This document shows, piece by piece, positions 1,815 through 63,485 of a stretch of 64,000 nt of DNA. Source of the DNA: Leucoraja erinacea. Taxonomy: Eukaryota. Location: positions 7,192,001-7,256,000 of the forward strand of contig NC_073406.1 in the NCBI RefSeq assembly GCF_028641065.1. The letters are read 5' to 3'. Under the pieces are notes generated by a model. The model did no database searches and was not told the DNA's origin. It worked only from the letters and a program-made list of their open reading frames with translations. Within the stretch, counting starts at the first letter, position 1, and each line of letters starts with the position of its first letter. Made by a program: the position numbers and the translations under genes.

Positions 1815-2217
1815 TCAAACGCACTTGCTTAAAAAAAGAAATGATTTGCTAACACCATGCGCTCAGGATTTCAAAGATTTGGGTAGGTTCTGGAAAAAAG
1901 AGTGGGAGGAAGCACTCACTATATGTGACTAGAATTCAATGTAATCCAGATGCAGAAATGTGCAAGGGACTGAACTAGTTTTAAACCAGAATCTTAGAGA
2001 GGTTGGAGGAGTTGACTTAGCTCCAGCCCCCACATCCCATATGGGATTCATGCACATGGCCAGTTTGTGAACTATACACCCAGACACAGCTCAAAGGCAC
2101 AAGCTCTGTTCATTTACTCACTCGGAAATAATAAGACCATCTTTGAGCTTGGTACCAAGCCCAGCCCAGATAATCTGCCACAGGCCAGGAACTGAACCAG
2201 ACACCTCCTTCCATCTG

Positions 2218-2435
2218 TTCAAGAAGGAACTGCAGATGCTGGAAAATCGAAGGTACACAAAAAAACTGGAGAAACTCTGCGGGTGCAGCAGCATCTATGG
2301 AGCGAAGGAAATAGGCAACGTTTCGGGCCGAAACCCTTCTTCAGTCTGAAGAAGGGTTTCGGCCCGAAACGTTGCCTATTTCCTTCGCTCCATAAATGCT
2401 GCTGCACCCGCTGAGTTTCTCCAGTTTTTTTGTGT
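2218..2435. mobile_element. Penelope pLTR-derived fold-back element with hammerhead core on both strands
   Basis: 94-bp inverted arms (2251-2344 / 2346-2439); core CTGAAGA-AGGGTTTCGGCCC-GAAAC-GTT; 15-bp TSD ACCTCCTTCCATCTG at 2203-2217 and 2436-2450. Confidence 0.8.
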
Positions 2436-3000
2436 ACCTCCTTCCATCTGCCCTGGGAGGCTGGGAGGCACTCAGCAGGTGGGCCGCCAGGAGCAAAGAG
2501 GGACCCGGTGAGGAGGGACCTGGCAGGCTGCAGCCACGTGCAGCAGCAGGGCTGGTTCACCGCTGCGAGAAGATAAGTGGACTGAGAACATTTGAAACCT
2601 TGTCGGTGCCAGAAATGTGCGACTCGTTGTGTACTGCCTCGGTGAAATCTGCTGTATGGTTTTACCAGATTGTATGCAAAAACAAATAATTTCACTGAAC
2701 CTAAATGCATGTGACAATAAAGTAGCGTTGGATCATTGACTGGTCCTCGATATGAGATGGTCCTGCACACACACAGGTGTCAGCGGTTATGGGGAGAAGG
2801 CAGGAGAATGGGGTTAGGAGGGAGGGATAGATCATCCATGATTGAATATATCTGATCTATGGTAGACTAGATGACTGAATGGCCTAATTCTACTCCTATT
2901 CCTTACGACCGCACAAGTGGTTCACCCGCCAATGCGCGGGGGGACACTGCAACGCAATGCATCCACAGAGAAATCTTTCAAGATGATGTTGATTACTTAC

Positions 3001-3127
3001 ATTTCTTCTTTCGCTTGCCACCTTTCCTCCTCCTTTTGCCCAAACCGGCCGATCCCTCGGATCGCACCGAGCAGCTGTGGATGCTGGCACTGTCCAGGTC
3101 AGATTCACCATGGTCATCTTCATCACT
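3001..3127 (-). CDS. CHD5: CHD5 exon (SDEDDHGESDLDSASIHSCSVRSEGSAGLGKRRRKGGKRKKK)
   Basis: gcag| acceptor, |gtaagt donor, 127 bp. ESDxDSASIHSxSVRSE motif of CHD5. Confidence 0.93.
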
Positions 3128-5108: not shown

Positions 5109-5492
<384 letters not shown>

Positions 5493-7150: not shown

Positions 7151-7608
7151 AGGGCGGCACGGTGGCGCAGCGGTAGAGTTGCTGTCTTTCAGTAATAGGA
7201 CAGCACTTTCAGCACCAGAGACCTGGGTTCAATCCCAACAACGGGTGCAGTCTGTACGGAGTTTGTACGTTCTCCCCGTGACCGCGTGGGTTTTCTCCGA
7301 GATCTTCGGTTTCCTCTCACACTCCAAAGACGTACAGGTTTGTAGGTTCAGCAGCATCTATGGAGCGAAGAAAATTTTCTTCGCTCCATAGATGCTGCTG
7401 CACCCGCCGAGTTTCTCCAGCAATTTTGTGTACCTTCGATCTTCCAGCATCTGCAGTTCCTTCTTGAACAGGTTTGTAGGTTAATTGGCTTGGTACAAGT
7501 GTAAATTGTCCCTAGCGTGTGTAGGATAGTGTTAATGTGCGGGGATCGCTGGTCGGCATGGACTCGGTGGGTCGAAGGGCCTGTTTTCGCGCTGTATCTG
7601 TAAACTAA
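7151..7608 (+). mobile_element. tRNA-derived SINE (HE1/V-SINE type)
   Basis: GGCGGCACGGTGGCGCAGCGGTAG A-box head, GGTTCAATCCC B-box at 7226-7236, V-type core, AAACT tail; related copies at 8218, 17953, 19670, 37219 and 60845. Confidence 0.8.
7349..7467. mobile_element. Same fold-back family, short hairpin, nested in a SINE
   Basis: 15-bp TSD ACAGGTTTGTAGGTT at 7334-7348 and 7468-7482; terminus CAGTTCCTTCTTGA shared with the 2218 element. Confidence 0.8.
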
Positions 7609-8466: not shown

Positions 8467-8560
8467 TTACAATACAATTGTGTTTGGTGATGTTGGTTGA
8501 GATTTTTTTTGATGTAATATTGGTCTAGGAACAGACAAAATATGTCTGATATTGGCTATA

Positions 8561-8797
8561 TAGTGCCCTCCATAATGTTGGGCACAAAGACCCGTCATTT
8601 ATTCATATGCCTCTTTACTCCACAATTTGAGATTTGTTATAGAAAAAAAATCACTCTGTACTGAGCAAAATCCTTTTAATAAAATCTGACAATGTTTAAC
8701 CGCACGTGATTTTTTCTATTACAAATCTCAAATTGTGGAATACAGAGGCAAATAAATAAATGATGGATCTTTGTCCCAAACATTATGGAGGGTACTC
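8561..8797. mobile_element. Tc1/mariner-type MITE
   Basis: About 90-bp inverted arms starting (C/T)AGTGCCCTCCATAATGTT, flanked by TA on both sides. Confidence 0.8.
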
Positions 8798-10076
8798 TAA
8801 CCCATTACAGGCATGAGGAATTATTCTGAAAACCTGGGGACAGAAACAGACAAATGTTTTTTGGATCAATAAAGGGATGATCTGGGTTGTTGGAGGATCA
8901 GCAAACAAGTGCTCCTTTTGGGGTATTGCTGATACAGGAAGGAAATATACAATAGTTTCAAACCAAGAGCTAAGATGCTTCCTTCCTGTATCGGTAGTGT
9001 CCGAAGTTCACGAGAAACCACGAGGCCCACTAAATGCTAAGTGTAAATCACAAATGTTGTTGCTCATATCAATTATATTTATACCTAAAATTACCAGATT
9101 TTAAGTTATAAAAGTGATGAAAGAGCAAAAGTTTGCATTAAATCTGAAGGATCAAATAAGGCCATAATACATAGGAGCAGAATTATCTTTCGGCCCATAG
9201 AGCCTGATCCGCCATTCCATTGTGGCTGATCTATTTTTCCCCTCTCAACCCCATTCTCCTGCCTTCTCCCCATAACATTTGACACCCTTGCAAATCAAGA
9301 ACCAGAGGGCATATGTTTACGGTGAAAGGGGAAAGATTTTAGAGGATCCTGAAAGGCAACTTTTTCACACAGAGGGGATGTTTGGTATATGAACCGAACT
9401 GCCAGAGAAAGTGGTTGAGGGAAGTACAATAAACAACATGTAAAAGACACTTGGACAGGGACATGAATAGGAAAGGTTTGGAGGGATATATAGGCCAGGC
9501 ATGGGAAAAGGGGACTAGCTTAGATGGGGTATCCTGGTCAGCATGGATTAGCTGGGCCAAAGTGGTTGTGACCAAACACTACATTGCATCAATTTTCATG
9601 GAGCAGAGCAAAGTATTGTTGTAAAAAGACACACAGAACAGGTCCCTCCCCAACTCATGGCAATGCTCATCTTTCCAGCAATATCACCAGAACCATGGCA
9701 TGTTATAGTTTGGGAGCTTGCTGGCCTTTAAGAAGATGCCTTGTTTCCTACATGTGAAAGGCATCCACACTTCAAAAACAACAAATAAGATGGAAAGCAA
9801 CTTTGAGCATCATGGGCATTGGAAAAGTGGCCACAGTGAGAGAAACTATGGAACAGTTGGATTTTGTAAATACCTCTCTGGTTAAATGATCTCCTTCACA
9901 AAGGAACCTTCTGCCAAGACTGCCTTTCCTCACTCATCAACGTGCTTGAAACTTAGAAGCCTCCTCAGTTCAGGGGCAATTAGGAGTGGACAACAAAACC
10001 CTAATGTTGGCAGCAACAATTACACCCCTTAAATTAAGCTCACAGCTAAAGTCCCTCCCATCCTTCCACACCCTAC

Positions 10077-13615: not shown

Positions 13616-16600
13616 AAACAATTCTCCTCAGCATCAAACACATCAAGAACCACATCTGTGGCATTGAATTCTCCTTTAAATATTTGGCCAACTGCAACTC
13701 AATTAAAGAAGAGCACAATTCTCCCATTCAGTTGCCATTTGAAGGACTCCTGCTCGCTTACTTACTTGTTCCAACCTTAAACTTCATCAATAATCTTGGA
13801 AACTCAAGAGTTCTCATTTAAGGTATTTTTAGTCTACTCACTCACCCAATGTGGATGCCAGTGGCTTGGCCAGCATTTATTACACAACTCAACTTGCCCC
13901 TAAGTCTGTATGCTGTGTCAGAAGCGAACTACTTTGATACAGGTCTGGATTCCTTTATTGGACTGACAAAGAAAGGATGGACAATTTCCTTCACGAAAGG
14001 GCACCAGCAAAGCAGCTAGACACAAATGGAGTAACTCATTAATACGTGACAGGCAACATCTCTGGGTACAAGGAATGGGTGACGTTTTGGGTCGAGACCT
14101 TTCTTCAGACTGCAGCTGCATTTCCTTCCTCCACATCAGCAAAACATATTGTCTTTTACACAATTCAGTGGTTCAATGCATAGCATCATTGACATCAAGG
14201 AAACATAAAAATTTAAATCACTTAAATTATTCACATTTAATTAATATCAATAAACAATAACAGTTTTAAACACATTTGGACAGGTACATGGATAGGAAAG
14301 GTTTAGAGAGATTTAGACTAAGGGGTAAGCCATTTAGAATGGAGTCGAGGAAACACTTTTCTCACAGAGAGTGGTGAGTCTGTGGAATTCTCTGCCTCAG
14401 AGGGCGGTGGGGGCCGATTCTCTGGATACTTTCAAGAGAGAGCTAGATAGGGCTCTTAAAGATAGCGGAGTCAGGGGATATGGGGAGAAGGCAGAAACGG
14501 GGTACTTATTGGGGATGAATCAGCCATGATCACATTGAATGGTGGTGCTGGCTCAAAGGGCCACATGGCCTACTCCTGCATCCATTGTCTATTTAGGCCA
14601 AATGGGAAATGGGACCAGCTTAGATGGGGCATTGTGGTTGGCATGGACAAGTTGGGCCGAAGGGCCTGTTTCCGTGCTGTATGACTCTATGACTGAAGGA
14701 GACCGTTCAGTCCATCGCCTCCTTGCTGGGGAGTTTCCACTTTGACAACAAAGTTGTACGTCATCTGTTCTTTGTAACATTAGACCAAGTTTACAGATTA
14801 CCAGGAACTCCTGACCCTCTCCACCGGATCTATTTTTAATTACGCTAACCCCCCACACCCTGTCACCAGTCTAAATGCTAGTCCCGCAAGTTCCCCTTAG
14901 TGTTAACTAGTGTTGCAGATACTGGTTTACAAAAAAAGACACAAAGTGCTGGAGTAACTCAGCAGGTTGGGCAGCATCTCTAGAGAATATGGAAAGATGA
15001 CATTTCAGTCAGATCCTCCTTCAGACTAACCAGTGCGTTTGTTTTCTGCAGCTGTAGCACTCCATGGTTTAATAATCTTTTAAATTGAAATCTCCAAACA
15101 CCAATTAGCCCCACGCAAGGAGGCAAGATGGTTCTGTCGGATTGTGGACATCAAAGAACATTAACAAAACAGAACATAATGTATCCCTGTTTTTTTGCCA
15201 GTTGCAAGCGCTTCTCCCGTGTACAATCCTGGCTCCGTCATTCCCGGACAAATCTCTCTAGACCACGACAACGTGTGAAGCCAGTTTCTGGCGAATCACC
15301 GCGAGGTTGAGCCACATTTATCCTGCACAGATTCACTTCGCAACTGAGCCGACAAAATGGCCATCGCTAATACAGCAACGCATTATCTTCAGTGCTGCCC
15401 GATATAATTAATCTAATGTGGCTGCGCTGGACTCTGATGTAGCTGAACGTATTGATCAGTAAATTTAAAAGAGTAAAGCACGCTATCTTCAGTCATTTGA
15501 TCTCAATTTGTTGATGCACACGTGACCTAAACATTTTATACATATCTTAGAAAAATAGTGAGACAGAAGAGAGAGTATTAAGACCCAAAAGACATAGGAG
15601 CAGAAATAGGCCATTCAGCCCATCGAGTCTACTCTGCCATTCGATCATAGCTGATCGATTTTAGCCTCGGAACCTATGACATCCATACCAATCAAGAACA
15701 TATCAAACCCCACTTTAAAAATGTCAAATATCTTGACCTCCAGTCACATATTGCAATGAATTCCACACACGCACCACTCTCTGGCTAAAGAAATTCCTCC
15801 TCATCGCCAATCTAAAGTTATGTCTGTTTATTCTAAGGCCGTGCCCTCTGGCTCTAGACTCTCGTATTATTGGAAACATCCTTTCCACATCCACTCCATC
15901 TAGGCCTTTCATTATTCGAGAGGTTTCACTGAGATGATCAAAATGGTTTGACCCTCGTAGGTCTTCTTTGGGGACGCTAGCAACTGCAGACGCTGGAATC
16001 TTGAGCAAAACACAAAGTGATGGAGGAACAGGACGAGTCCCTTCTTCAGGGTGAAATCACTCAGGGCCAGTGGGGAACAAATGCTGACGAGTCAGCGAAT
16101 CATCACCTGGGAATATAGTACGGCACAAAAAAAAACAGAGCAGGCCCTGGGCCCCTTGAAGCCTTTGCCACCATCCACTGACGTAGACACTGATTCTGTC
16201 CTTTGCAACCTAAGCCTCTCCTATCCTTTATGCCCCATATAAATGATTGATCACCTTTCGTAAATGCACAACTATCAACCACAGATTTCTGTGAGGGTGA
16301 ATTCCAAACATCATTAACTCTCCTAAATACAGGAATCCCTCTTCCTTCCAGCCCCCAAAAAACTGGTGTCATATTCTGAAACCCAGCGCTCCAGTTCTAG
16401 ACTCTTCAACCAGAGGAAACAGCCTCAATACCCATCTTGTCCGTTGGTTCAGCATTCCTTGTGCAATAATACTGATGGGAAAAACTGGCGTCAAAAACAT
16501 CTTTGAGGATAACAGGCTACACAACTCACAATGGTATAAAAAAGCAAATTGAATATGCTGGAAATGTGACGTCACTCAGATAACAAGGGCAGAAGGGATG

Positions 16601-26758: not shown

Positions 26759-27151
26759 CAAAGATCCTATAGCAAGCAAGATAATACCACTCGACAAAAG
26801 TGACGTAGTACGGTCATGGGCAGATTCATGGGTAATTTTCGGCCCCATTTCCGTAACCGGCTTCCGTCTCCGCAACAAAGATCCCATAGCGGAGCAAAGA
26901 TACTAGTGTGGAGACGGAAGCCGGTTACGGAATCCTCGTAAAAATAAGTTATTTGGTAAAAATCTTCTCATTTTCAGAATTATAATTTATTAACACAAGC
27001 TGTTCCCCCGCAACGTTGATTACACTGCGAGTCGGGTCGGGTTACTGAAATGGATGAAAAAAAAGGCACACATACGGCTCCGTTGCGTTCTACACGTCAG
27101 CCCATTGCATTTAGCAGGAGTGGTCTATCTTGCTCCGCTATAGGATCTTTG
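26759..27151. mobile_element. MITE with CAAAG termini and 8-bp TSD (P-element-like)
   Basis: TIRs CAAAGATCCTATAGC(GG/A)AGCAAGATA; TSD GTACTCAG / GTACTTAG; internal third TIR copy between 23-bp inverted repeats. Confidence 0.75.
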
Positions 27152-30100
27152 GTACTTAGTAGATACCATAACATGGAGTTCATAGTGATCAATGGTTTGA
27201 TGATTGTTGGGAAGAAACTTAGGAAGATACACATGGGTGTGGGCAGATGGGTTTCTTCTTGTTTGGTTTATCTTTCCTAGACAATATTATTGATTGTAAT
27301 CAAGCAGAGGCAGAACTAATCAGAGCAGGTTCTTTCCCACAAATTGTTGTCCAACATACACAAAATGATCTTCGACAAAGTACTACAAAATTGGAACTAG
27401 TATGGATTTCAAACATGAACAGAAGCAGCTGAATTACTTCCTCTAATATAAATGTGTTACTATAATTCTAACATTTTGCAGCACAGAAACAATGAACCAG
27501 AAGGGATGCTGCAAGTCTCTGGAGGAATTTTTCTCTGGGAATGCCAGGGGTTGCAGGGAGACCCGATAGAAGCATATAAAATTATGAAGCTTTAGAAAGC
27601 ATAGAAAGTTATAGCATTTTTCCCCAGGATAAAAAAAATCAAATACTAAAGGGCAAAGCTTTATGGTGAGAGGGACAAAGTTTAAAGATGTGTGTGTGGG
27701 GGTGCGGTGGGGGGGGGGGGGGGTAAAAAGCACAGAGGTGGTGAGAGTTTGGAACAAGCTACCAGGGATGGTGGCTGAGGGAATTACGATTTGCCTCAGA
27801 CTGTTGGAAATTTTTAATCTATTTATACAGATTTGTTAGAATCACTTGTTATTTGTGAAATTGGTGTAGTTGACTGGCAAATTTATTTTAACAGTTCTAA
27901 GTTGATGGCCTAACAGACACACTACAGATGGTTCGCTTTCACACTATGCATTACGTAGTCAGCAAAATCTCACAAGATGCAAACATCGCAAAGTAAGAAA
28001 ATAACCATAAATAACAGACTGCATTCAAAAACATTCCTACAGACTCCTGAATTTCCCAAAAAATGACAACACGCAGATAAGTGGCATATGATGAACTATA
28101 AAATTGGCACCTATTTAATTATCCACGACTGAAATTTCCACCAATTTCTTTATCTAAAAAAATCAAAGCGTTATTATTCCCACATTCATCTTCCAAGTGG
28201 CTATTCTTTCGAACTGTAGCTGCCAGGTGTGGAGCTGCCAGGCAAGGATCAACAAGCATGACTGCAGAAGACCATCTTTTGGCCGTATCTAAGCCTTTTG
28301 AACAAGGTTTATTTATCAGCAGGCAAGACCTGAACACTAGCAGTTTCTACCTTTCCTGAATCACAAAGCATAGTGGCTAATAATCTGTTCCTTCCCTGCC
28401 ACCAAATACCTGTAGCCAACACAGCAGATAACAGTGAAGAGCCCCAGTCAGTTCCTCACTGGCTAAAGCAACTATCTATGGAGCTGTACCGTACACACCT
28501 AGATGTTGCCAAGACTCAAGGGCCGAAGCTTCGGGGAGATGTTGAGCAGGCTAACACTATCCTCCTTGTGCAGAAGGCTGAGGGGTAATCTTTTACAGGT
28601 GTTCAAAATCACAAGGGGAATACACCAAGACTTTTTCCCGAGTCTAGGGGAATCAAGAACCAGTGGGCATAGATTTAAGGTAAGAGGTGGAAGAATTATT
28701 AGGAATCCGAAGGGTAGCATTTTCAGAGGATGGTGTGTATATAGAATAAACTGCCAGAGGAAGGGACAATTACATTTAAAAGACACTGGGACATGTACAA
28801 GAATAAGAAAGGTTGCGAGGGATATAGACCAAATGCAGGCAAACAGGACTAGCTTGGATGGGGCATCTTGGTCAGCATGGATGAGAGTAGCGAAGGGCCT
28901 GTTTCTATGACTATCTCCGATAACTCCGAATACAGCTGAAAACATTTGTTGAAATTAGAGGGTAAAAACAAATCGATAGAGCATTGGAAAACAAGTTCTT
29001 GAACTAGACGAGAATAAATAGGCATCAAGTGAGCAAACTAACTTTAATCGTCATGCAGAAACATCCACAATGGCAAGAACTGAATGTGGGTTTAAATTGT
29101 TGACTGATGGAGATAGTCAATTGATGCATCCCACAAACTAAAGCTTGTTAACAAGCAAGGGAAGTTCAAACCTGGTTAGTGCGAGACTGTTTCACAGGGT
29201 GTAGGATAAATAACATGCAGTTCCCTTAAAACTAAACTAAATTGTTTAGAGAAACAAAAGCACCTGGAAGGCATTAAGAATAGGAATTCATTGCCCATAG
29301 CAGTAAACATAGAAAATAGGTGCAGGAGTAGGCTATTCGGCCCTTCGAGCCTGCACATTCAATATGATCATGGCTGATCATCCAACTCAGTATCCCGTAC
29401 CTGCCTTCTGTCCACAAGTGCTATTTGTGACAGAAGTGACAAAAACTCTCATCACACATAAAACAATGCCTGGTTGCATTCGGTAGAGCCATAACCTGCA
29501 GGGCCACAGATGCTGGATGGTAGATCAGTTTTTTTTCAACCACCAAAGACACTGGGTTAAATGGCCTCTTCCAGCATCAATGTTCAGTAATTCCAAAGTA
29601 TGCCACGGAAGCAAAGCCAGAATTGTGCATTGAAATTAGCCAAAAAAGGTACAAAAATATACAAGAAATGAGCGCACCATCATGGATGATATACTATTTC
29701 ATTCTACCTTTCTGCACACTCCAACTTCTTAATATCTTGAATTAATCTTGATTATACTCCGTTTCCTTTGGGGTTGGACCTTCAAAGATTCAGAAAGTCT
29801 TGCAGTGAACCTGTTCACTGAACATATACTAATGTGGCCCTTCAGCTCATTGTATCTCTACTAGTTCATCCAACTGGTCCCGTACCTTTGTTCCTTAAAC
29901 AGTACTGCAAATGGTTCCCTTTTTAATTGTATATTTAATTATTTTAGAACAAGTAACAAAGAAAACTAGTGTTAAAATTCAGAACTCTGAGACAAGAAAA
30001 ATGACAGCATTTAAATGTGATTTCAGTAACCCTATGTCCAGGATCATGATTCCACATATTCTTAATTTTTAAGTTTGAATGTTCAGATTAAAATGATTTT

Positions 30101-30950
30101 TGAAAATGGAATTTGATACAGCTTTCCACATTGTTTGTTGTGAAGTGTTATAGGTATAAGTGAGGCCGGATAGTACGTATGGATCTAATTTTTTTCACAT
30201 TCATACTTTCATCCAATTATTGAGATGCTGCTTGAAAGACAAGGGACGAGCTGTAGGAGGGACCCATTCCTTCTCTCCAGAGATGTTGCCTGTCCCGCTG
30301 AGTTACTCTGGCATTTTGTGTTTACCTGGGGGTGGGGAGGAGACAGGATATTTGGAAGCTGAAGATGATACGTTATCTTGAAATACATTGTTACATACAG
30401 TGGGGGAAGATACCCAGCCCAAGGTGCAATGAAAACAGTCAGGTCAGGCATAGTCTGTGGGAGAAAACATTAATATGTCAAGTTGAAGATACTTTGTCAT
30501 GAATGGGAAAGTATTAACTTTATGTTGCAAAGACAGCGGGGGAAGAAATTGGACAAAGACGCAGATAGGGTAAACCCAGGGTTGCCATGGGGATAAATGA
30601 TAAGATTATCTGGTCAATGGGGCCAGTTAAATATCCAAATTTAAAAGCCTTGAAGCAAGGCAAATTAAAGACTACAGAGGAATGGAGGAGAAATGGCAAA
30701 ATGCTGAGCTGTCCACATCAGTCTGTGCTAATTGTCAGAAAAACCAAGCCACCTATCAAAGCTGACTTACAAAAGGAATGAGAAATTCCAATACGGACAG
30801 TGAAAGCAAGTTGTAGAATCCAAATAGGGAAAGAAAATGAACAAAATGCAATATTTATAACTACATGCATTAATAATAACCTAGAACACAGCAGATGACT
30901 TCCAAGCAAAGAAAGAAACCCAGAGCTTCACGATTTTCCTTTGGACCAAT

Positions 30951-37514: not shown

Positions 37515-37777
37515 AAAAATGTAATAAAAATAAACCGCAGTTGCTGGTTTATACCAAAGATAAACACAAAATGCTGGAGTACCTCAGGTCAGGCTGCATC
37601 TCTGGAGAAAATGGAAGATAACATTTTAGGTCAGGACACTTCTTCAGACTGACTTTAGAAGGGAGGAACCATGCAATCAGCCTGAAGAAAGGCCCCGACC
37701 CAAAACATCACCTATCCATTTTCTCCAGAGATGCGACATGACCCGCTGAGTTACTCCAACATTTTGTGTTTATCCAA
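37515..37777. mobile_element. Penelope pLTR fold-back element
   Basis: Inverted pLTR arms with degenerate cores; GGCCCAGTAAT duplicated at 37504-37514 and 37778-37788. Confidence 0.7.
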
Positions 37778-44369: not shown

Positions 44370-45225
44370 GTATTGTATATCTTTATTGTCATTTCCTGAG
44401 TATTCACATACCCAGAGGAAACAAAAAAACGTTGCTCAACCAGTGTCCATTCAGTGTGCATTAAAAATAAATAGAAATAAAAATACATGTATCATGAACA
44501 AATTTAACACTCTTCTAAACATTCAATAGGCGTTCCGATCGGCAGCGGCACAACAGTGGCTCTGCTGCAGTGTGTCCAGGTTGGTGGTTGGTGCGCGATA
44601 CTTTGGCAGGGGGCAAAATCCATTTAGCAGTCTTATAGCCTGTGGGAAGAAGCTGAGGAGCATCCTGCCTTTTTGGAGTGCTAAAAGTAGCTGCTCCTGT
44701 ACCTCTTCCAATGGCAGGATGGAGAAAAAGAGGTCATGCGATGGGTGGTAGGGGTCTTTGATGATGGAGATGGCTCTGCTGATACATCTCTCTTCCTGTA
44801 TATGTCCAGCAGGAAAGGGAGTGGAGCACCAATAATCCTGCTGGCGGTCTTCACAATCCTGTCTAGTTGGTGCCGTTCGTACGCCTTGCAGCTCCCGAAC
44901 CAGGAAGTGATGCCGTAGGTCAATGTGCTCTCGATTGTCCCCCTATAAAAAGTCCGTAGGTGTGTAGTGGGGAGACCTGCTTTACGTAGTCTTCGGAGAG
45001 GGTGTAGTCGCTGCTGGGCTCTCTTGACCAGTGCTGTGGTGTTGGCCGTGGACGTCAGGTCATCAGACAGATGTAGTCCTAGGAACATCACGCTGCTGAC
45101 CCTTTCCACATCAGCTCCATCGATGTGCAGAGGTGTATGGTGTTGTTTCCCCGCCTTCCTGAAGTCAACCACCATCTCCTTAGTTTTTCCCACGTTAAGA
45201 ATGAGGTTGTGGGATTTGCACAATT
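44370..45225 (-). mobile_element. Rex1/Babar-type LINE 3' fragment
   Basis: ORF LNVGKTKEMVVDFRK..FLGLHLSDDLT..KRAQQRLHPLRRLRK..FYRGTIESTLTYGITSWFG and SFFPQAIRLLN. Confidence 0.85.
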
Positions 45226-46044
45226 GGTGCTGAAATTAGGAGGAATTTCTTTACACAGATGGTGGTGAAGCTCTGGGGTCCTCTACCTTGGCGGCAATGG
45301 AGCCTTGGTCACTGATTACATTCAGAACAGAAGTTAATGGATTTCTGATTATGAAAGGAATGGAAACGGCACGGAAACAAGCTCTTCAGCAAAACTCATC
45401 CAAGCTAACCAAGTTGCCCAACCAGGCTCGTCCAATTTACCTGTGGCAGGCCCAGATCGCTATACAAGTACCTGTCCAAGTATCTTATACATGTCATACT
45501 TGTACCTGCTTCTACCTCTTCCTCTGGTAGCTCATTCAATATACACACAACCTACTGTGAAAAAGTTGCCTATCAGGTACATTTTACGTCTTTCCCCTCT
45601 CACTTTAAACCTATTTTCTCTTGTTTTTGATTGATGATGATGATGATGATACTTTATTGTCACCTGCACCTCGCATACAAAGTATACAAAACAGTCACCT
45701 CAAAGCCGCTGATGAAGTTACAATGTACTCATTCCTTCTTCGTTCCCCCCCCACCCTGATCCCCCTTTGTTCTCAGTGCCTCCCTCGCCGGGTCCCCCTT
45801 TGTTCTCAGTGATGCGGTCCAACCCCGTCCTTAGTCTGTCTGAACCCTGAGGCTCCGTCCTTGGCCCGACTGCGTTCAAGGCTCCGACCCGGCCTGCAGC
45901 TTGGGGGAGGAGGAAACATGACTGGAGCAAAAAATAAACAGCTGGAGGATCTCAGCAGGTCGAACAGCATCTGTGAGGAGAAAGGAATTGTCGGCCTTTC
46001 GAACGGAGAACCTGCATCAGGACACTTGAATGGAGTTGGGAGAA

Positions 46045-46712: not shown

Positions 46713-49303
46713 AGAGCGGAGCTGAATCCCAGATAACATCTCCGGCTACTCTTGTTAAAATCACTTTAATATTTGGTATTATTATACAACATGGTCATAG
46801 GATGTGCTGTGTGGTGTGAGGAGGAGAGGGACTGCTGGATGCAGCCTCTCGTTGTGCCGTTCATACCTGATTGAGCATTTGAACCTTGTCTTTTGTGTGA
46901 GCTTGCTCTTTGTAGATTCCAGTAGAGTAGTGACATCATTGGATAGTCAGACACACAATTATTTCTCTAGACAATTGGAAAAATTACAACCTAAATCACA
47001 TAGTTACTTTACTTTTATAGAATGTTTTAAAAAAAATAGTTGTAGCATATGAAAAGTATAGGTTGGTGTCTGCACTGGTGTCTTTTATAAAATTGCAATT
47101 AATGAAACACAACTTACATTCTGAGGGACATCTTTAAATGCATTGAAGCAAAATTAAAAGAACGAAATTGGGTGAGAATTACCAAATTCCGTATACATTT
47201 AAAAAAAAAATTTACATCTTTCAAATGCAGAAACCTTGTAAAAATAATTTATACTTTAAAAAAAAGATATGGTATTTGGAAAATATCTTGTCAACTTTTC
47301 CCATTGGAAATCTCAGTGAGTACATTTATATTGGGGGATGGCAGTGTAAAGTGGTCACGCTGAAGTGAGGAACTGCAGTGCCTCAACTGGCAGGTAAACA
47401 TGATGACCACACAAGCAGGCTGTGCTGTGGGCTGGTGACAAGGATGCATCGTGACTTCAGGCGATGCAGACAGGTTAAGTGAAGAGGCAAGGATGTGGCA
47501 GATGGAATGGAAAATGGAAAAAAAGGTATGGTCACTCACTTTGATCGAAAAAAATTGAGTATTTTTAAACGGCAAAAACAGAGGGACTGGTTTTCCTTGA
47601 GCGCAAATGGGACGAGCTTAGATGAGGCAGCTTGGTCATGAAGGCCCTGTTTCCATGCTGTATGATTCCATGAAGCACTAAGGTTATGTATGTTCAGAAA
47701 TTAATTAAGAATGCCAGATGATGACAAAAATTAAAGAACTCAGTAGAACTAGTAGCTTCTGTGGGTGCAGAGGAATGGTAGACGTTTCGGGTTGAGACCC
47801 TGCATCAGGACTGAGAGTGCAAAGGGATGGCAGCTTGTATATAGAAGCGAGAGGGAAGGTAGAGGCTGAGGATGGTATGTGAGAGGTGGTACCAGGTGCC
47901 AGAGGGATGGTGGGCAGATGAAACTGCCTGGGGGAGGGGATAGACAAGTTGACCCAAGCAAGAAGAATCCAGGAAGATAGGTACTTGGACAATTTTCACA
48001 TATGTAGATCTGTTTATTCACAGGACAGACAATTTTTTTGCACAAGGAGAGATTAAACAAAGTAAGCCTTTACCCGCGAGTTCAGAGGAAAGAGGGTGCC
48101 TCATTGAAACATTTAAATATACAGGATAGATGTGCGAAAAGTCCCAATACTTCTACAGATGCTGCCTGACCCACTGTGTTCCTCATGCACTTTCATTTTT
48201 GCTTAAGCCTCCAGCATCTGCAGTGTGTCTGTTTCTTGGTGTTTCTTTTGGCTGGATTGAATAGAACTAGGGATCTCTCATGACAGGGTGAGTGCAGCAA
48301 AGCTTCACGAGTCTGATTTCAGCAGTGGCAGGTTTTTAATTTGAGCAGAATTTAAACAGACTCTTTTAAGTTTAGATTCCATTGAATGCAAAATTCTTGG
48401 CGAATTTGAGTTGATAGATGGATAATTGTTTTTTCCTCAGCTGAGGTATTTGAAACCAAGGGTAACAATTTCAAAAGAAGTGGTTGGCTATTCAGGACCC
48501 AGATGAGGAGAAATGTATTCACCTGGAGGGTGAAGAGTCTTTGGAGTTCTTTATCCAGAGAACTGTGATGATCTGGTTGCTGAGTAAAGCAAGACAGTGA
48601 CTGAAATTAAGGGAATCAAGAGATTATGGGGTTTGTGTAGGATAGTGGTGCTGAGTTAATGATCAGCTGTACCAGTCAGTTGAATGGTCTTCCCCTGCTT
48701 CTGCAACCCATGTTTTAATATTCTTTTGTTCCCTTTAAATGAAACTGCATCATTTGCCTCGGCAGTACTTTGTGTAGTAGCAAGTTGTGGATTTTCTGTA
48801 ATTTTTATTGGATTTATGAATGAGTTTCACATGATTATAGCCACAGCTTTGGGGATGCTCCACAGGTGAAAACATCTTTGCTACATCTACCCCATCAAAT
48901 CCTTTCCTTATTTTCATAATGATCTGGTCATCCTTTAGCACATCCTTTCTGGAGATGATTTTGGTAATAGTGATGTGTGAGAGCTTTTAGATAAACACAT
49001 ATGCAGGGAATGGAAAGATATGGATCACATGCCGGCAGAGGAGATTAGTTTAACTTACCGTCATATTTAGCATAGACATGTAGGCTGAAGGGCCTGTTTC
49101 TGTGCTGTACTGTTCCATGTTAATAATAAACTAAACTAACGTTACCACTTTCTCAACTTGCCATGCCACCTTTAGTGAACTGTGGCTGCACACGCTCAGA
49201 TCTCTCTATTCTTGCATCCAATTTAGAATTGTCTTCTCTAGTTTATGCTGCTCGATGACCTCAAATGAACAGCTATTTCTTGAAAGATCTTTTTTTTTTT
49301 CAG

Positions 49304-49778: not shown

Positions 49779-50525
49779 GTGCAGGAAAGAGCTGCAGATG
49801 CTGGTTTAAATCAAAGGTAGACACAAAATGCTGGAGTAACTCAGCAGGACAGGCAGCATTTCTGGAGAGAAGAAATGGATGATGTTTCGGGTCGAGACCC
49901 TTCTTCAGACTGATGTCAGGGGAGTGGGCGGGACAGAGATAGAATGTAGTCGGAGACAATAACTGGGTGGGGTAACTGGGAAGGGGGAGGGGATGGAGAG
50001 AGGGAAAGCAAGGGCTATTTGAAGTTAGAGAAGTCAATGTTCATACCGCTGGGGTGTCAGCTACCCAAGTGAAATATGAGGCGCTGTTCCTCCAATTTGG
50101 CAGGAACAGAAAGGTCAGATTGGGAATGGTAGGGGGAGTTAAAGTGCTGAGCAACCAGGAGATCAGGTAGGTTAAGGCAGACTGAGCGGAGCTGTTCAGC
50201 GAAACGATCGCCGAGGATGCGATTGGTCTCACCGATATCCAGGACTTGACACCTGGAACAGCGGATACTGTAGATGAGGTTGGAGGGGGTGCAAGTGAAC
50301 CTCTGCCTCACCTGAAAAGACTGTCGGGGTCCCTGGATGGCATCGCAGGAAGAGGCAAGGGGACAGGTGTTGCATCTCCTGCGGTTGCCTGGGGAGCGGG
50401 TGGTTTAGGTGGAAGGGACGAGTTGACCAGGGAGTTGCGGAGGAAACCGTCTCTGTGGAAAGCAGAAAGGGGTGGAGATGGGAAGATGTGGCCAGCAGTG
50501 GGATCCTGTTGGAGGTGGCGAAAAA
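49779..50525 (-). mobile_element. Penelope-like retroelement 3' part: GIY-YIG endonuclease remnant plus pLTR with hammerhead core
   Basis: ORF 50057-50311 FTCTPSNLIYSIRCSRCQVLDIGETNRILGDRFAEQ..HFNSP..LEEQRLIFHLG (GIY-YIG with internal CxxC), contiguous with the pLTR; core at 49881-49908 on -. Confidence 0.85.
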
Positions 50526-50934: not shown

Positions 50935-51145
50935 ATAGGAAAAAACTGCAGATGCTGGTTTAAATCAAAGGTAGACACAAAATGCTGGTGTAACTCAGTG
51001 TGCCAGGCAGCATCTCCGGAGAGAAGCTATGGGTGACGTTTCGGGTCGAGACCCTTCTTCAGGCTGGAGAGAAGGAATGGATGACGTTTTGGATAGAGAC
51101 CCTTCTTCAGTCCTGCTGAGCTACTCCAGCTCTTTGTGTCTACCT
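50935..51145 (-). mobile_element. Penelope pLTR mini-element with two tandem hammerhead cores
   Basis: Intact core CTGAAGAAGGGTCTCGACCCGAAACGTC on - at 51035-51062, second degenerate core about 51083-51110; 14-bp TSD AGGTGATCTATAGT at 50921-50934 and 51146-51159. Confidence 0.78.
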
Positions 51146-51862: not shown

Positions 51863-52373
51863 CATAGAAACATAGAAAATAGGTGCAGGAGTAGGCCATT
51901 CGGCCCTTCGAGCCTGCACTGCCATTCGATATGATCATGGCTGATCATCCAACTCAGTATTCCATCCCTGCCTTCTCTCCATACCCCCTGATCCCTTTAG
52001 CCACAAGGGCCACATCTAACTCCCTCTTAAATATAGCCAATGAACTGGCCTCAACTACCTTCTGTGGCAGAGAATTCCACAGATTCACCACTCTCTGTGT
52101 AAAAAATGATTTTCTCATCTCGGTCCTAAAAGACTTCCCTCTTATCCTTAAACTGTGACCCCTAGTTCTGGACTTCCCCAACATCGGGAATAATCTTCCT
52201 GCATCTAGCCTGTCCAACCCCTTAAGAATTTTGTAAGTTTCTATAAGATCCCCCCTCAATCTTCTGAATTCTAGCGTGTACAAGCCGAGTCTATCCAGTC
52301 TTTCTTCATATGAAAGCTCTGCCATCACAAGCCGAGTCTATCCAGTCTTTCTTCATATGAAAGTCCTGCCATC
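51863..52373 (-). mobile_element. Young 5'-truncated CR1 LINE 3' end
   Basis: ORF 51954-52328 LSYEERLDRLGLYTLEFRRLRGDLIETYKILKG..FFTQRVVNLWNSLP; (CATAGAAA)n tail; ATGGGA on both flanks. Many related fragments (about 3360, 9300, 14315, 15600, 28490, 33555, 35350, 46045, 63855). Confidence 0.9.
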
Positions 52374-55061
52374 ATGGGATGGGGCGTGGTTGGTGGGATA
52401 AATGAGTGAGGGGAGTAAAGAGGCAGAAATGGGTTTGGGAAAAGAAGATAGACACAAAGTGCTGGAGCAACTCAATGGGTCAGTGTTAAGAAGGGTCACG
52501 ACCTGAAACATCACCCATCCTTTTTCTCCAGAGATGCTGCCTGACTCGTTGAATTATTCCAACACTTTGTATCTCTCTTTGGTATAAACCAGCATTTGCA
52601 GTTCTTTGTTTCTACATTGGGAAAAGAAGAGTTAGCTCTGTTCCTGATTCTGATTTGGTGAACTTGACTGGCAGGGCCAGAGGTGGAATGGTTCAGGGGC
52701 TCTGACTCCATCTGCTAGCAGGGACAGCTCATCTAACACACTGTTGACTAGTGTAACGTAAGTTGCTGTTTGGGAATCCGATGAATCTGGTGGAATTACA
52801 TGTTTTACACTTCAACATGCTCCTTTTATTGTGTAGCATTTTCAGTGAGGTGAGGACAGGAGGGAATGACCTGGGGATAATTCTTGGCCCTTGTTTTGGG
52901 TCTGGAGAAACAGGGCAGATCACAAATGGACAGTTAACTCATGCTAATAAGCTTCTGTCACCCACTCAGTTCTCTGTAACTAAGGGGAAGTATTAATCGC
53001 ATCAGGCTTATTGTTGAACAGCTGCACAATAAAAGCCGGGCTACTTTTAGAGTGATTGGAATGCAAGGCAAACCAGGATGACAGAGCCAAGATAGCAGAG
53101 GCATGCAAACCCGCAGCAGTAAACAAAAGGCTTTCTAATCTAATAGTGGACTGAAATCCAGCACTGGCCAATTAAAACACGCCCCGACAATCCCGTCCAC
53201 ACCAAATCCCTCCACCCCATGCCACCCCAACCTCTTAACAAAAAAAACCTGATGCCAGCTTTTGTTGTTGGGCAGTCCTGGTGTGTACCTTTCAGGCTGT
53301 AATCCCTGGGTGACATTTACATGGTGATATGACCCTCTTGTCAATTTTTAATTTTAGATTTGACATTGCATAAATCTAAACCCAGTGGGATAAAAAATAA
53401 AATCCACACCATGTATATGATTAGATTCAGGCCTGTTTATTCACGGTTTCAAAGTGTTATTTACATTTCCAAAGTAGCGTTGAATTGTTGCTTTTGGATG
53501 AAAATTACAATTGGATTGTGGGCATGGCCATGAAGATTAGGAAGTCCAGGAGCTGAGCCAGCGATAGAGGCATAGCGCGGGGCAGCTGGAACCCTTTGTG
53601 ATGAAACGCAATCCCCCACAGGTGACTGGCTGGCTGTGTCTTTTTTAGTCACTGGGCTGCTCCCCTTGCCAACCTGATGTTCATTTTGTCCCTGCAAGCT
53701 TGTCCAGTCACCACTGATCAGCCGTCGACAGTCCGCTCACCGACGGAGACTCGGGACATTCCATTGACGGCACGTTCGGAGGGCGGCCAGCGTGAGGCGG
53801 GGGAGGGGGTGACTGCGGGGTGGGAAGGAGGGCGGCTCGTGTGTAACCTGGATGACTGAGAAGACCGAGGATCAGAGATGAGGCTGGATGAAACTGATGA
53901 CCACAGGTGAGAGCCCCCATTTCTATCTGAGTTTGACACATTGACTGGTGAAGTGGCTGAGGTGCAAGGTGGTGTTTCGCAGATCCACCGGGAGGAACTG
54001 AGTTGGTTCAGCAATGTTTTTACAGGGAAACGAGTGATGTTTTGACTATCTTGGGCTGGTGCAGTAGTATGGGGCCAAGCCAGATTTGTTGCCTTGCCTC
54101 TGACAAAATTGTGTGATCTTTTTGAGAGTCAAGAATGTTTAATTGTCATATGTACCAACAGTGGAACATTGAAACTCTTACTTGCAGCTGCAAAACAGGC
54201 CAGTAAATGCATTGCACATAGATAATGTATAATAAACAAAATTAATAACCACATTAGGGCATAAAACGGGAAACTTCCTGAGGCATGAGCATGTAATGTG
54301 ACGGTTCATCATGGTGCAGAGGTAGTGCCAAGCATGACATCTCTAGCCTATCAGATGAATGAAAACAACATGCCATGGTATAATATACATCAGGGTGTAT
54401 AATATTGTCCTGGAGCCCGGGGCAATGTTACTCACTATCATCACCAACAACAGATTATCAGGAGGTTAACACATTGCTGCTTGTGCCAAGTTGCCGTTCA
54501 CAGGTTTGCGTTCGTATCTCCTGCATTACCCACGGTGACTAAATCTCAATGCTACATCCTCGGCTGGGAGCATTTCGCTCATCCTGAAATCTGTTATAGA
54601 AATGCTTTTTTTTCCTTTCCTTCACAGAAATAGACAAAAGATAGAGATTTTCAATGGGCCAGGCTGCATCTGTGGAGAGAGACACAATTAATATTTCATG
54701 TACTTGGCTTTTCATCAGGACTGGGAATTAGAAAACCAACATAATGTGAATGGCGTGGAAGGAAGAAGGAGGAAAAATCAAAAGGACGGAGATCAGGAGA
54801 GTACGATGCAAACCTTCGCATCTCTTTTCTCTCTTCTCTCGTTCTGATGAAAGGCCTTTAATCTGAAATGTTAACTCAGTTCTCCACAGATACCACCTGA
54901 CTGGCTATGTATTTCTAGCATTTCTGATTTTATTTCAGATTTCCAGAATCTGCGGTTTTTGATTTTGTGATGCAAACGGAGATGGGTTTCGGCTGAGAAA
55001 AATTAGTGATTGTTTGATATTCACTGAAGAATTGTCAGAAACAAGACATAAAAAGGAGATG

Positions 55062-55248
55062 GTGCACAAAAATGCTGGAGAAACTCAGCGGGCGCAGCAG
55101 CATCTATGGAGCGAAGGAGATAGGCAACGTTTCGGCCCGAAACGTTGCCTACCTCCTCCGCTCCATAGATGCTGCTGCACCCGCCGAGTTTCTCCAGCAT
55201 TTTTGTGTACCTTCGATTTTCCAGCATCTGCAGTTCCTTCTTAAACAA
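55062..55248. mobile_element. Same fold-back family, folded at hammerhead stem II
   Basis: Hairpin centred on GTTTCGGCCCGAAAC; 14-bp TSD ATAAAAAGGAGATG at 55048-55061 and 55249-55262. Confidence 0.8.
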
Positions 55249-55329
55249 ATAAAAAGGAGATGAACGAAGAAGAGAGAAAAAAACAACACTGAAACTATGA
55301 GATATTAAAGACTGAGGTCGCCAAAAATC

Positions 55330-57190
55330 AGAACTAAAGGGTTGCCGGAAATACCCAGCAGAGCAGACAGCATCACTGGAGAGAGAAAGATTGAGTAATG
55401 TTACACGGTGTCGACCTTCCATCAGAACTGGCAAGACCGGTTCCCTGAAATGGTTGAATTCAGTGTTGTATCCTAAGAGCTAGATCATGCTGAATCAGAA
55501 GATCAGATGCTGCTCCTTGAACTTACATTGAGCTTTTTTGGAAGCGGTTTAAGTGGCAAAAGGCAGAGAGGTTAAAGCAGGAGAATTAATGGAGAATTAA
55601 AGTGAAGGCAACTGCAAGTTCAGTGTCCCCTTGAGGACTGGATGGAAATGTCCCGCAAAGTGATCACGCGGTCTCCGTTTGGTTTCTACAATGTAGAGGA
55701 GATCACCTCATGAGCACCGCATGCACTACACTAAATGGAAGGAGACAAGAGACTTGCTTCTTCATTTGAAAGAAGTGCTTGGATCGCAGGATAGTGGGAA
55801 GGGAAAGGGTGAAAGAGCAGGTCTTGCATCTCTTGCGCATGGAAAGATACCGCGAGTGGTGGAGATGACAGAGCGAACTAGGGAATTGCAAAGGGAATGG
55901 TCCCTTTTGAATGCTGAAAGGGTGTGAAGACATGGCTGGTGATGGCATTGAAAGAGGAGGAAATTACAGGGAATGTGGAGGGTGGTGGGGGGTAGAATAT
56001 GGGGAATGATCTACATTCAATTTGGTGTTAAAGGAGGGTATATGAGAGTAGAAATGCAGTAGGTTTGACAGATGTGGTTGAGAAGCTTGTTAATGATGGA
56101 AGAGAGGAAAGCAAAGGTAAGGAAAAAGGAATTCAACTGAGATTCTGTTGAATTTGTCCTTATCAGAACAGATTCAACAGAAATGAGTAAAATATACATG
56201 ATCATTCAGGATATCCAATAGATAAAATAGATAGCTTGTCCAAAGCAAGCGCTGTCTGCGGAGGGCGCTCAGCATCGCCAAGGACTGCTCTCACCCCAAC
56301 CATGGACTGTTTACCCTCCTACCATCCGGGAGGCGCTACAGGTCTCTCCGTTGCCGAACCAGCAGGTCGAGGATCAGCTTCTTTCCGGCGGCTGTCACTC
56401 TACTCAACAACGTACCTCGGTGACTGCCAATCACCACCCCCCCCCCGGACACTTATTATTATTTATTCAAATCGTTTGCTATGTCGCTCTTCCAGGGAGA
56501 TGCTAAATGCATTTCGTTGTCTCTGTACTGTACACTGACAATGACAATTAAAATTGAATCTGAATATGCCAGGGTAATTCAACTTGTGGATCTTGGAAAG
56601 GAGGTGGAAGCAGGGGACTGTAGTCCTGGAAGAAAGATCACCAGAGGCATTGAGGTCAGTGGTAATAGCCTCATGTAGAATGGTGGGTCATGGTTCTGAA
56701 GAAGGCATGAGGCAGTGCAGAGAGCTGGTCTTCAATTTTCCAAATCACAGCAGCACCGTCTTTGTCAATGGATTTGATGTCTCGGCTCGGGGTTAGTCAG
56801 CAGTAAACAGAATGCTGTGAGTTCAAAGGCGGGAGGTCAGAGTGAGTAAGGGTAGCGGACAAAGTGAGATAATGCATTTCACCGTGGTAATGAATAGAAA
56901 TGGAGAGGGTACACGGGGAGAGAACATCGACCAGGGGCATTGGGAATTCTGAAGCAGGAGGAAGGCTCTGCAGTCTGGGGTGAAGGCTCCTGATCAAGTA
57001 AATAGCATGGAGGTGAGCAGGACACACTGGAGCCTCTGCTGAGAACAGATAGCTGAGTGGGGAAGATTCTGGCAGGATGGTGAAAACACAGCAAGTGGTA
57101 AGACTAGGTGGAGAGATGGAAGTCAGAAGAAAGAGAAGCGGCAGAAAATTCAGAAGGGGTATTACAAATCAAGAGGACTTGATTCACAGA
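55330..57190 (-). mobile_element. Old degenerate Penelope element (RT N-terminal region, EN and pLTR), interrupted by a Rex1 fragment
   Basis: - strand remnant IKSIDKDGAAV at about 56745-56780 resembles IKPADKGGAVV; region 55440-55990 resembles the EN region at 50040-50525. Confidence 0.6.
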
Positions 57191-58869: not shown

Positions 58870-59905
58870 GTAAGGATCTCTCGTCTTAACTCAGAAACGG
58901 CACATTTCAAATAGTGGATGGGCGGTGATGCACTTTTGTGGCAACAAATAACATATTCAGAATAAATATAATAACTAAATCAGTATTTAAATCAACATTA
59001 ACAGAAAGCCAAGGAAATGCAAATGCTGAAATCTTGAACGGAACACAAAGTGCTGGAGGAACTCAGTGGGTCAGGCAGCATTTGTGGAGGGAATGTTTCG
59101 GGTCAGTCTGAAGAAGGGTCACCACCAGATATTCCATCTGTCCATTCCTTTCACAGAAGCTGCCTGACCCGTTGAGTTCCCCTGACAGTTTTTTTTTTGC
59201 TCAAACCTCAGAGCTGCACAGATCAGGGAGGCTTGTGTTTCAATCCCTGACACATGACGAGTATCTAGCCTGAGCCAGACTGACACATAAGGAGTTGCTA
59301 TATTACACAGCCAGCCAGAAATGGTGCATCAAGCAACAACAGGATTGGACTTAACCTTGATGTACCCCAAGGTCAAAAACCTGATTGTCTGGGCTCTTAA
59401 ATGTTGCCCAAGGACAACGGTCAAACTGCTTTGGTTGATCACCGCCTTTTGACAGTTAGGAAAATATTTGATGAATACAAAGGGAAAACAATGAAGGAAA
59501 CATACAACACTTCTATTGGGTATTGGCATCCCATACCACCTTATGGCAGCGTCTTTTTTTTTACAAAAAGATAGACATATCAATTAAAAATGAAGTTACT
59601 TTTATAAACAATATTTTCATCAATTCATCAGAATTGATTTTATGATTCTGTAAACTTTACTTGTGTGCTACACTCCTGGTTCCGATAAAAACGTCCTAAA
59701 GCCCCATTTTGCTGGGCTCGTGTTTCAAACCTTCTCCGGTCTCTCCATGCTTCTCATAAACATGCCAGGCAGCAGATTCTGATCGCTGGGAATGTGAGAC
59801 ATCGGGTGAACAAAATCAGCTTAGGAAGAGGATTTACCTAAATAGGCTCGAGGGGCTGTTCTCACTCTGACTTATGCTGTTGTATCTTGTGCTTCACCTC
59901 CTCAG

Positions 59906-62254: not shown

Positions 62255-63311
62255 CTTACAACCTTAGAAATCGTTATGACCCTCCAGTTCACCCCTAACT
62301 TTCATCAATCCACAATGTGGGGGCTGGGCCTTCAATCATGCAGGCTCTACACTTAGGAATGCCCTCTCTGTGTCTTTCTTCAACTTAAGACACCCCTTAA
62401 AACCAACGGCATTCATTTAAGTTTTTGGTCAACTGCCCTAAAATCTCCAGATGTAGTCTGGTATCAAATTTTGTTTGGTCACATTTCTGTGAGGTGCATT
62501 GTATTGTTGCATTGTAGACAAGGTGCTACATCAATACGTTGTTCTTGTTTCTACTTTCTCCCGGCATCCATCCTTCACCAAGAAAATACAGGGTCCGGTT
62601 GTTCTACAATCTCTCCAAAATTCTTTCACTCTGAGCCCAGACAGCAGGGGATATAGACATCAGGGAAAAATGTTCCTTGTCTGTTAGTAATCCCAATTAA
62701 TAACCTGCAACTGGGAGGCTAGTAGTGATCCACCTCCCTTACTGTTAATTGAAAGACAAATCAGATAGACAATCTTGAGATCCAATGTTGGAGTTACTTG
62801 AGCCATGAGCCCCCAAGGCTCTCGCCATGAAGCGTTTCCTCACCACATCTCTGCGCCTGTTGTGAATTAATTCATAAAGACATTAATCATTGTCCATGAA
62901 CCTTGTGACCAGTTGAAAGATAAAAGGTGAGGAGATGATGCTTGTGTCCAGCAATTCTGATCCTTTTAAAAGCAGCTGCAATCTCCTTGTTGTTCAGTCA
63001 TGTTTCAGCCATGGTGCGATGAAGCGGTGGCCTTTGCGTGATGACAGAGATACATACCAATCCGAGGCATCATCACTTTATATAAACTCCATCTGAATTC
63101 ATGCTTCCAAATTAAAAACAACAGGACGCAGAGATAAATAGGAAGAAAAAACATCACAGCAATTAAGTTTGAACAAAGTCAGAAGGACCCCAAACCCGAA
63201 GCGTCGCCTAGCCATGTCTTCCAAAGATGCTGCTTCACCCGCTGTAAACCAGCATTTGTAGTTCCTTGTGGAGCAATTAGATATGCCGCATTAGGCCTCA
63301 GAGCCAATAAA

Positions 63312-63440: not shown

Positions 63441-63485
63441 AACCGCATGGGCCGCAGGTGTTGGAGAGCTGGGGCAGAGGGGGGG

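Follow-up and report, generated by a model that had tools for sequence, protein, structure and literature searches.

The question raised by this locus is how a short insertion within an intron comes to read as a hammerhead ribozyme core on both of its strands. Is it a mobile unit in its own right, a hairpin that carries its ribozyme with it, or does the symmetry have a more ordinary origin? The window, which is the whole 64-kb stretch of DNA that was analysed, holds the insertion at 2218-2435, referred to here as copy A. The answer in which we place high confidence is that copy A consists of the head-to-head pLTR ends of a Penelope-like element (PLE), flanked by a target-site duplication (TSD), where the mirror half was likely built at insertion, the dual motif is likely a by-product and the cores are predicted to be inactive in the host transcript.

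Setting and anatomy of copy A

Copy A lies within CHD5, as the earlier note had proposed. The exon at 5205-5459 (minus strand) is 96% identical to ray proteins named CHD5, and tblastn with a ray CHD5 protein places copy A between two minus-strand exons, that at 3047-3127 and the PHD exon that follows it, which confirms the intronic location. The best protein matches in the window come from batoids, and the genome is thus probably that of a ray or skate. A frame at 63295-63831 (plus strand), in divergent orientation to CHD5, has a UBA-like domain (PF14555, E 6e-4, under the curated cut-off) and presumably resembles the start of TDP2. The features on which the argument depends are given below, where element positions are counted from +1, defined as the A of TCAGT at window position 49911 (minus strand).

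2203..2217, plus strand: left target-site duplication, 15 bp, a 15/15 match to the right copy
2218..2250, minus strand: 33-nt 'tail', present in the long arm only, which fits the 30-40 bp tail in the available text of PMC8557442 and PMC3846280
2218..2344, minus strand: long arm, a pLTR from hammerhead box to tail, whose sense is that of the minus (CHD5) strand; 77% identity (133 columns) with the truncated Penelope-like copy at its 3' end
2317..2344, minus strand: minimal hammerhead core, with a predicted cut at 2317/2316 and an A-G stem I pair beside the cut
2341..2349, no strand: junction, a native palindrome with 4-bp arms (TCAG-T-CTGA), in which A2343 is the +1 equivalent and the common arm 5' end
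2346..2373, plus strand: minimal hammerhead core, with a predicted cut at 2373/2374
2346..2439, plus strand: short arm, inverted and tail-less, which ends at +97 and has its last 4 nt in common with the TSD
2436..2450, plus strand: right target-site duplication
3047..3127, minus strand: CHD5 exon upstream of the host intron, from CHD5 protein matches and tblastn
7334..7482, plus strand: sister copy B, with a 15-bp TSD, which turns at about +37 and has no hammerhead core
49782..50520, minus strand: 5'-truncated Penelope-like copy of an older subfamily, with a decayed GIY-YIG endonuclease end, a pyrimidine-rich 3' UTR and a pLTR with hammerhead and tail, which gives the native sequence upstream of the core
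55048..55262, plus strand: sister copy C, with a 14-bp TSD, which turns inside stem II at a native palindrome with 7-bp arms and is without the CUGA box

The TSD-flanked insertion is 218 bp long and is made of two head-to-head copies of a pLTR end, with no coding capacity (no ORF). Its hairpin is as first described, with 94-nt arms (2251-2344 and 2346-2439) that are 98% complementary across a 1-nt spacer and that differ at only two pairs, 2278/2412 and 2295/2395. The palindrome is nevertheless asymmetric in that 33 extra nucleotides (2218-2250) are confined to one arm, and 4 nt of the short arm also belong to the right TSD. When folded as RNA, the region 2190-2470 reaches -207 kcal/mol (z = -23.9), and none of 200 shuffles folds as well. 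The 15-bp direct repeat that had been reported around the insertion is also present, with 2203-2217 and 2436-2450 identical at 15/15 positions, but the recent date that had been read from it does not follow, since copies with arms only 79-89% alike also have perfect (14/14) TSDs and the TSD alone therefore gives no date. By its arm differences (2/94), copy A is the youngest long-armed two-armed copy within the 64-kb window.

A long inverted repeat of this type invites comparison with a miniature inverted-repeat DNA transposon or a microRNA hairpin, and Rfam does return weak miRNA matches. In that search no hammerhead family appeared at E ≤ 10, and the best matches to copy A were generic miRNA hairpins with scores far under gathering (49.7 vs 81). 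Moreover, the arms are of unequal length and meet head-to-head, unlike terminal repeats, TSD length varies from 11 to 15 bp among the related insertions, and the sequence is that of a retroelement 3' end, all of which makes such an origin scarcely credible. Two unrelated inverted repeats are also found in the window, one AT-rich (8559-8799; 90-nt arms, 88% complementary, 61-nt spacer), which gives the impression of a small DNA-transposon derivative, and one GC-rich (26849-26932; 26-nt arms, 32-nt spacer).

The Penelope-like parentage

Sequence related to the pLTR occupies 37 merged intervals of the window, amounting to 5,089 nt or 8%. The arms of copy A are 77-80% identical to the 3' end, that is the pLTR, of the copy at 49782-50520, and thus represent the pLTR of a younger sister subfamily. 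The frame of this truncated copy has a CxxC linker, the motifs IY..C..C..IG, R, H and EEQ, and a C-terminus that is short, as is usual. Over 83 columns its peptide shares 69% identity with a little-skate protein. As a lead, GIY-YIG occurs on 29% of members in the top Atlas cluster (score 0.95) and on 29-35% in the nearest clusters; Pfam gave no match to the decayed endonuclease peptide. The definition of Neptune and Nematis elements used here, from the available text of PMC8557442, is a CX2-5CxxC linker before the endonuclease together with a CCHH motif. In this older-subfamily fragment the linker CxxC and both CCHH cysteines are present, and the first linker cysteine and one histidine have decayed. 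Judged from its residues and by those definitions, the endonuclease fragment, 47 kb from copy A, would be of the Neptune/Nematis type with one linker cysteine lost. A second and much older fragment at 55636-55930 (minus strand) resembles the Penelope-like endonuclease region with 59% identity.

The earlier note had copy A mobilised by the local Penelope reverse transcriptase (RT) and endonuclease. No Penelope RT was seen in the 64-kb window by ORF list and motif scan, and only decayed endonuclease fragments were found, so that this part of the proposal is not upheld and the mobilising element would lie elsewhere. LINE reverse-transcriptase C-terminal fragments are present at 44681-45235 (minus strand, matching PF09004), 28503-28910 and 51954-52337, to which we take the Rex/Babar and CR1 labels to apply.

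The structure of copy A is that of an EN+ Penelope-like insertion, with homology to the pLTR 3' end, an inverted 5'-truncated pLTR, a 33-nt one-sided tail and a 15/15 TSD. The arm homology to 49782-50520, the tail and the TSD thereby bear out the Penelope-like origin that had been suggested, along with its minimal pLTR-type hammerhead, inverted 5' pLTR and retro-type insertion. The EN+ PLE insertion units described in PMC3846280 and PMC8557442 share with copy A the adjacent inverted 5'-truncated pLTR, a 30-40 bp tail at one end, the TSD and a palindrome or overlap at the junction. Unlike those published units, as far as their available descriptions go, copy A has only two pLTR arms with no ORF between them, and the 5' ends of the arms cluster; the TSDs here are also 11-15 bp, in comparison with 8-10 bp in the rotifer examples. 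Poseidon PAc of Anolis carolinensis (Frangieh et al. 2024, PMC11167929) offers further points of likeness in the accessible part of the paper: a hammerhead near the front end of the RNA, two RT starts a tail apart, an AC-rich tail end, extension of both strands and an insertion for which cleavage is unneeded. PAc is a Poseidon element, whereas the local endonuclease has a linker cysteine motif that would be of the Neptune/Nematis type. In metagenome contigs the 17-nt family motif occurs at 73 loci, where the longest arm alignment spans 28 columns, and all of these were taken as chance. A search of the literature on such elements in sharks and skates, a scope outside which most subscription papers fell, gave nothing relevant.

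The hammerhead core and its predicted folding

A motif scan of the whole 64 kb for CTGAnGA, a closing stem of at least 3 bp and GAAA gives six sites. Two of these are in copy A, on the plus strand at 2346 and on the minus strand at 2344, both with a 4-bp stem, and the claim of a core on each strand is accordingly sound. Both strands read CUGAAGA, an extra A, the 4-bp stem, GAAA and CGUU. On the plus strand the CUGAAGA box (2346-2352) is followed by the extra A, stem II (2354-2357/2362-2365) and GAAA (2366-2369), and then by a palindromic ACGU and a GUU triplet before the predicted cut at 2373/2374. The UUCG-capped stem II of the first description needs one correction, in that the 4-bp stem is present but it is a U-G pair that closes the UUCG. 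Similarly, the stem I of about 2 bp holds for the plus strand (U-G, G-C) but not for the minus, CHD5-sense strand, where an A-G stands beside the cut. Elsewhere stem I measures 2 bp in 6/11 older arms. It extends to 3-4 bp in pLTR families that are more distantly related and have CUGAUG boxes, and in one such family C-G takes the place of U-A at the cut. These families are represented at 45922-46025, 47726-47814, 54651-54900 and 55343-55431, and the pair at 54651-54900 forms an inverted structure with a 119-nt spacer.

The core has the CUGANGA and GAAA boxes, the extra base before stem II, the G-C closing pair and the palindromic stem III remnant that characterise minimal PLE hammerheads. In the available text of PMC4209133 the likeness covers the boxes, the extra base before stem II, the G-C first pair, the palindromic 15.2-16.2 and the lack of loop 3. 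Copy A differs in its 4-bp stem II and in a stem I of only 2 bp, as is seen in the D. virilis variant, compared with 4-5 bp in the usual type. Unlike the type set out there, copy A has a GUU triplet and two cores that lie back to back within one helix. That source also describes dual hammerhead motifs on opposite strands, 100-700 bp apart, and finds minimal PLE hammerheads to have low activity even as dimers, and the review PMC6765202, in the part available, is in agreement on PLE hammerheads.

Is the core under selection? The earlier note had asked whether it is better conserved than the flanking pLTR, and it is: across 18 arms, non-CpG mismatches number 9/176 in the core versus 88/517 and 84/550 downstream (Fisher P 3e-5 and 2e-4, the 18 arms not being independent). 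Such conservation, as a pattern in aligned arms, suggests that the source elements are under selection. Stem II is paired in 83% of 72 cells (18 arms), compared with 6-63% when it is slid. The covariation in stem II that had also been looked for did not emerge, since among the 18 arms it is not above shuffles, 313 of 500 of which reach the double-change count (272-472 of 500 across measures). In the available text of PMC11167929 the Anolis PLE hammerhead cleaves only with protein and is dispensable for insertion in vitro, and PLE hammerheads can be refolded by protein. It is probably the source elements, and not copy A, that preserve the hammerhead, which would work there as a dimer or with the aid of protein.

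Within copy A, the early caveat that the long hairpin would compete with the ribozyme fold agrees with prediction. In a read-through transcript of either strand the predicted probability of stem II is 0.0, and in the host-strand context fold the unpaired probability is 0.0 at 26/28 core positions. On these folding models the cores of copy A are likely inert passengers in the host transcript, and the dual-strand ribozyme motif is likely a by-product of insertion.

Construction of the palindrome

All counts here come from one 64-kb window, in which the young subfamily comprises three copies (2218-2435, 7349-7467 and 55062-55248). These turn at three places, which are the 5' edge of the core in copy A, a point downstream of it in copy B and the interior of stem II in copy C. 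Only copy A has the full core on both strands, with half of it in copy C and none in copy B. Among candidate insertions in the window, 11/20 have an edge direct repeat of at least 10 nt; with edges set by hand their TSDs are 11-15 bp, 9/11 of them perfect, and all 11 are two-armed on inspection. The usual pattern in these TSD-flanked copies is one arm that runs to the tail and a second that stops around +93 to +98, and no two of the 11 have the same junction. The different junctions among the sister and TSD-flanked copies mean that the mirror half was likely made anew at each insertion, and thus that the palindrome was likely built during each insertion rather than inherited as a unit. In one two-armed copy, at 50937-51145, which has a 14-bp TSD, 48 bp of the core region are duplicated in tandem and the second arm has an internal deletion.

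These junctions bear directly on the idea, central to the earlier note, of palindromic ribozyme hairpins as a non-autonomous family in their own right, which would be transcribed in either orientation and would move whole. Such a family would account for a complete core on both strands, a clean TSD, the lack of an ORF and the conservation of the core across arms, and non-autonomous hammerhead-bearing PLE derivatives do exist. Those are the non-LTR retrozymes (bioRxiv 10.64898/2026.07.22.740005, available in part), which are like copy A in being non-coding, hammerhead-bearing and derived from PLE pLTRs, and which are found in one cartilaginous fish. Retrozymes, however, are head-to-tail tandem units with a ribozyme in each, whereas copy A is head-to-head and single; no tandem array, their criterion, is present at copy A, where the arms are inverted. 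Both cores occur in just 1/3 same-subfamily copies, the others having different junctions and an incomplete or absent core, no junction recurs among the 11 TSD-flanked insertions, and the core is predicted to be buried in a 94-bp helix. Movement of the palindrome as a unit is accordingly highly unlikely, and a short non-autonomous single-arm RNA is a possible template.

If the palindrome is made anew, where do its arms begin? Of the CUGAAGA-type arms that reach the core, 18/19 stop within -2..+4 (TCAGTCT) and one continues into the ORF, and the 45 nt upstream of +1 are unrelated between arms, save where the partner arm supplies the sequence. The rate of stops from +10 to +95 (18 stops in 2,603 nt) leads to an expectation of 5% in 7 nt, which gives a binomial P of ~3e-23 for ends that were set by hand in arms that are not fully independent. 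The count omits the tandem-duplicated 51064-51110, the distant families (45922, 47726, 54651, 54841 and 55343) and very decayed arms (8065, 15979, 17749, 19864, 48145 and 63185), and 18/19 would drop by one or two if the 24-nt spacer 37653-37676 were native upstream sequence. In the asymmetric copies 25693, 52445 and 59011 one arm starts at +1 and its partner stops at another point, with 2-4 nt of microhomology where the two join, and +1 therefore acts as a cDNA end itself. The clustered arm ends suggest a fixed RNA 5' end.

Hammerhead cleavage was considered as the source of the arm 5' ends and rejected, as only 1/37 tabulated arms starts at the cut (+32, 30262). The arm in question, in 30250-30327, begins at the predicted cut (+32, within a 2-nt microhomology) and is joined to an apparent tiny tail remnant. 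A splice acceptor at +1 would be in keeping with the 102 nt before it (49912-50013, minus strand), which are 79% pyrimidine and close with a branch-point-like word and then CAG, and with the D. virilis Penelope, whose start site lies upstream of an intron with an end that abuts helix I (PMC4209133 and PMC2377424, in part). It is disfavoured, because the arms keep the AG and share no common upstream exon, and +1 may be fixed instead by a transcription start site or an RT stop.

A related suggestion is that the centre of copy A is a two-way transcription start, from which each arm gives a hairpin-free RNA, such that copy A could itself be a source and its RNAs could pair as a dimeric ribozyme. 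The word TCAGTCT matches the initiator consensus, YYANWYY; both strands carry such an initiator-like word at the centre (TCAGTCT and TCAGACT), and arm 5' ends pile up at the central A. The D. virilis Penelope also has an internal, TATA-less promoter, according to the accessible text of PMC2377424, but the start there is upstream of the intron just mentioned and the position in question may be a splice acceptor. Against ribozyme activity of these RNAs, stem II in a solo young-subfamily arm has a predicted probability of <0.003, because the purine run pairs with downstream pyrimidines and another fold is favoured, two solo cores together are predicted to form a duplex that is not a hammerhead, and one strand has a broken stem I. 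Taken together, this makes a two-way start very improbable.

The preferred reading is that of an ordinary Penelope-like insertion. A source element elsewhere in the genome would nick both target strands, 13-15 nt apart, and each nick would prime one cDNA on an RNA that begins at +1, just 5' of the hammerhead. One cDNA would start at the tail end (~+130) and the other ~33 nt upstream (~+97). As the two cDNAs have the same polarity, they would be joinable only at self-complementary sequence or at chance microhomology. In copy A both would have run to +1, where their ends, AG-A-CT, could pair to create a symmetric centre with a full core in each arm. L1 twin priming likewise involves two target-strand primers and two cDNAs that are joined by microhomology, which leaves an inversion between two TSD copies. 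The L1 cDNAs are made from different stretches of the RNA, whereas both cDNAs would here copy one and the same stretch, hence the palindrome. The Anolis PLE protein acts in vitro on both strands, which it nicks and extends, using uncleaved RNA and two internal start sites a tail apart, although joining of the inverted arm is not described in the available main text of PMC11167929. A literature search on twin priming in PLEs returned nothing relevant, which is weak evidence given that most subscription papers lay outside its scope. Twin priming, with one cDNA per target strand, is favoured as the mechanistic step with a confidence just above even.

The main competitor is fold-back, in which a single cDNA, or an antisense RNA, primes its own copying at a small palindrome, and resolution follows ~33 nt before the tail is reached. 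Copies C and A turn where the young arm has its two strongest native palindromes, at +21 and +3 respectively, and the sequence just upstream of the core in the 49782-50520 copy is natively TCAG-T-CTGA. The young copies also have private variants that are common to both arms and absent from the sister copies (two bases in A, one in B and one in C). For the older two-armed copies (n=8) own-arm identity is clearly above that of the best other arm in only 2, and a shared arm origin is therefore shown for the young copies only. Most TSD-flanked copies have a short arm whose sequence is contained in the long one, and in the part of PMC3846280 that was available Arkhipova et al. explain junction palindromes by self-priming on an antisense template. 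On the other side, copy B has a zero-spacer junction without a native hairpin, and the end of the short arm at about +93 to +98 in most copies is directly explained by a second RT start site. Furthermore, in 14014-14132 and 59011-59204 the tail-less arm is the longer at its 5' end and holds sequence that the tailed arm lacks. These two copies, which seem to need two cDNAs, are old, and could reflect later deletions from a full palindrome. Fold-back is on this evidence unlikely, though a genuine contender. In copy C (55058-55248) each of the 5 arm differences is a transition (T/C or A/G), and most are T to C when read on the sense strand; in this one copy they may represent RT wobble errors, antisense-RNA editing or GC-biased repair.

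What does an insertion of this kind mean for the elements and their host? Copy A itself matters little, as one of many pLTR stumps in an already described layout. The manner in which PLEs form inverted pLTRs is described as undefined in the available text of PMC8557442, and a fixed 5' end with two fixed 3' ends, in abundant short insertions, makes twin priming versus fold-back testable by junction counts. A bolder proposal, which we regard as improbable, is that elasmobranch Penelope RNAs start at one fixed nucleotide, on the hammerhead's 5' edge, that twin priming of both target strands at two RT start sites accounts for the inverted pLTR, the tail and the TSD alike, and that symmetric products rebuild a two-way start that could fire hairpin-free single-arm ribozyme RNAs and seed a SINE-like amplification. 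For the host, intronic pLTR hairpins would be a large source of double-stranded RNA in pre-mRNA. If the fixed start and twin priming are true, the stumps, of which thousands are to be expected per ray genome, would serve as a natural record that decides how inverted arms are made.
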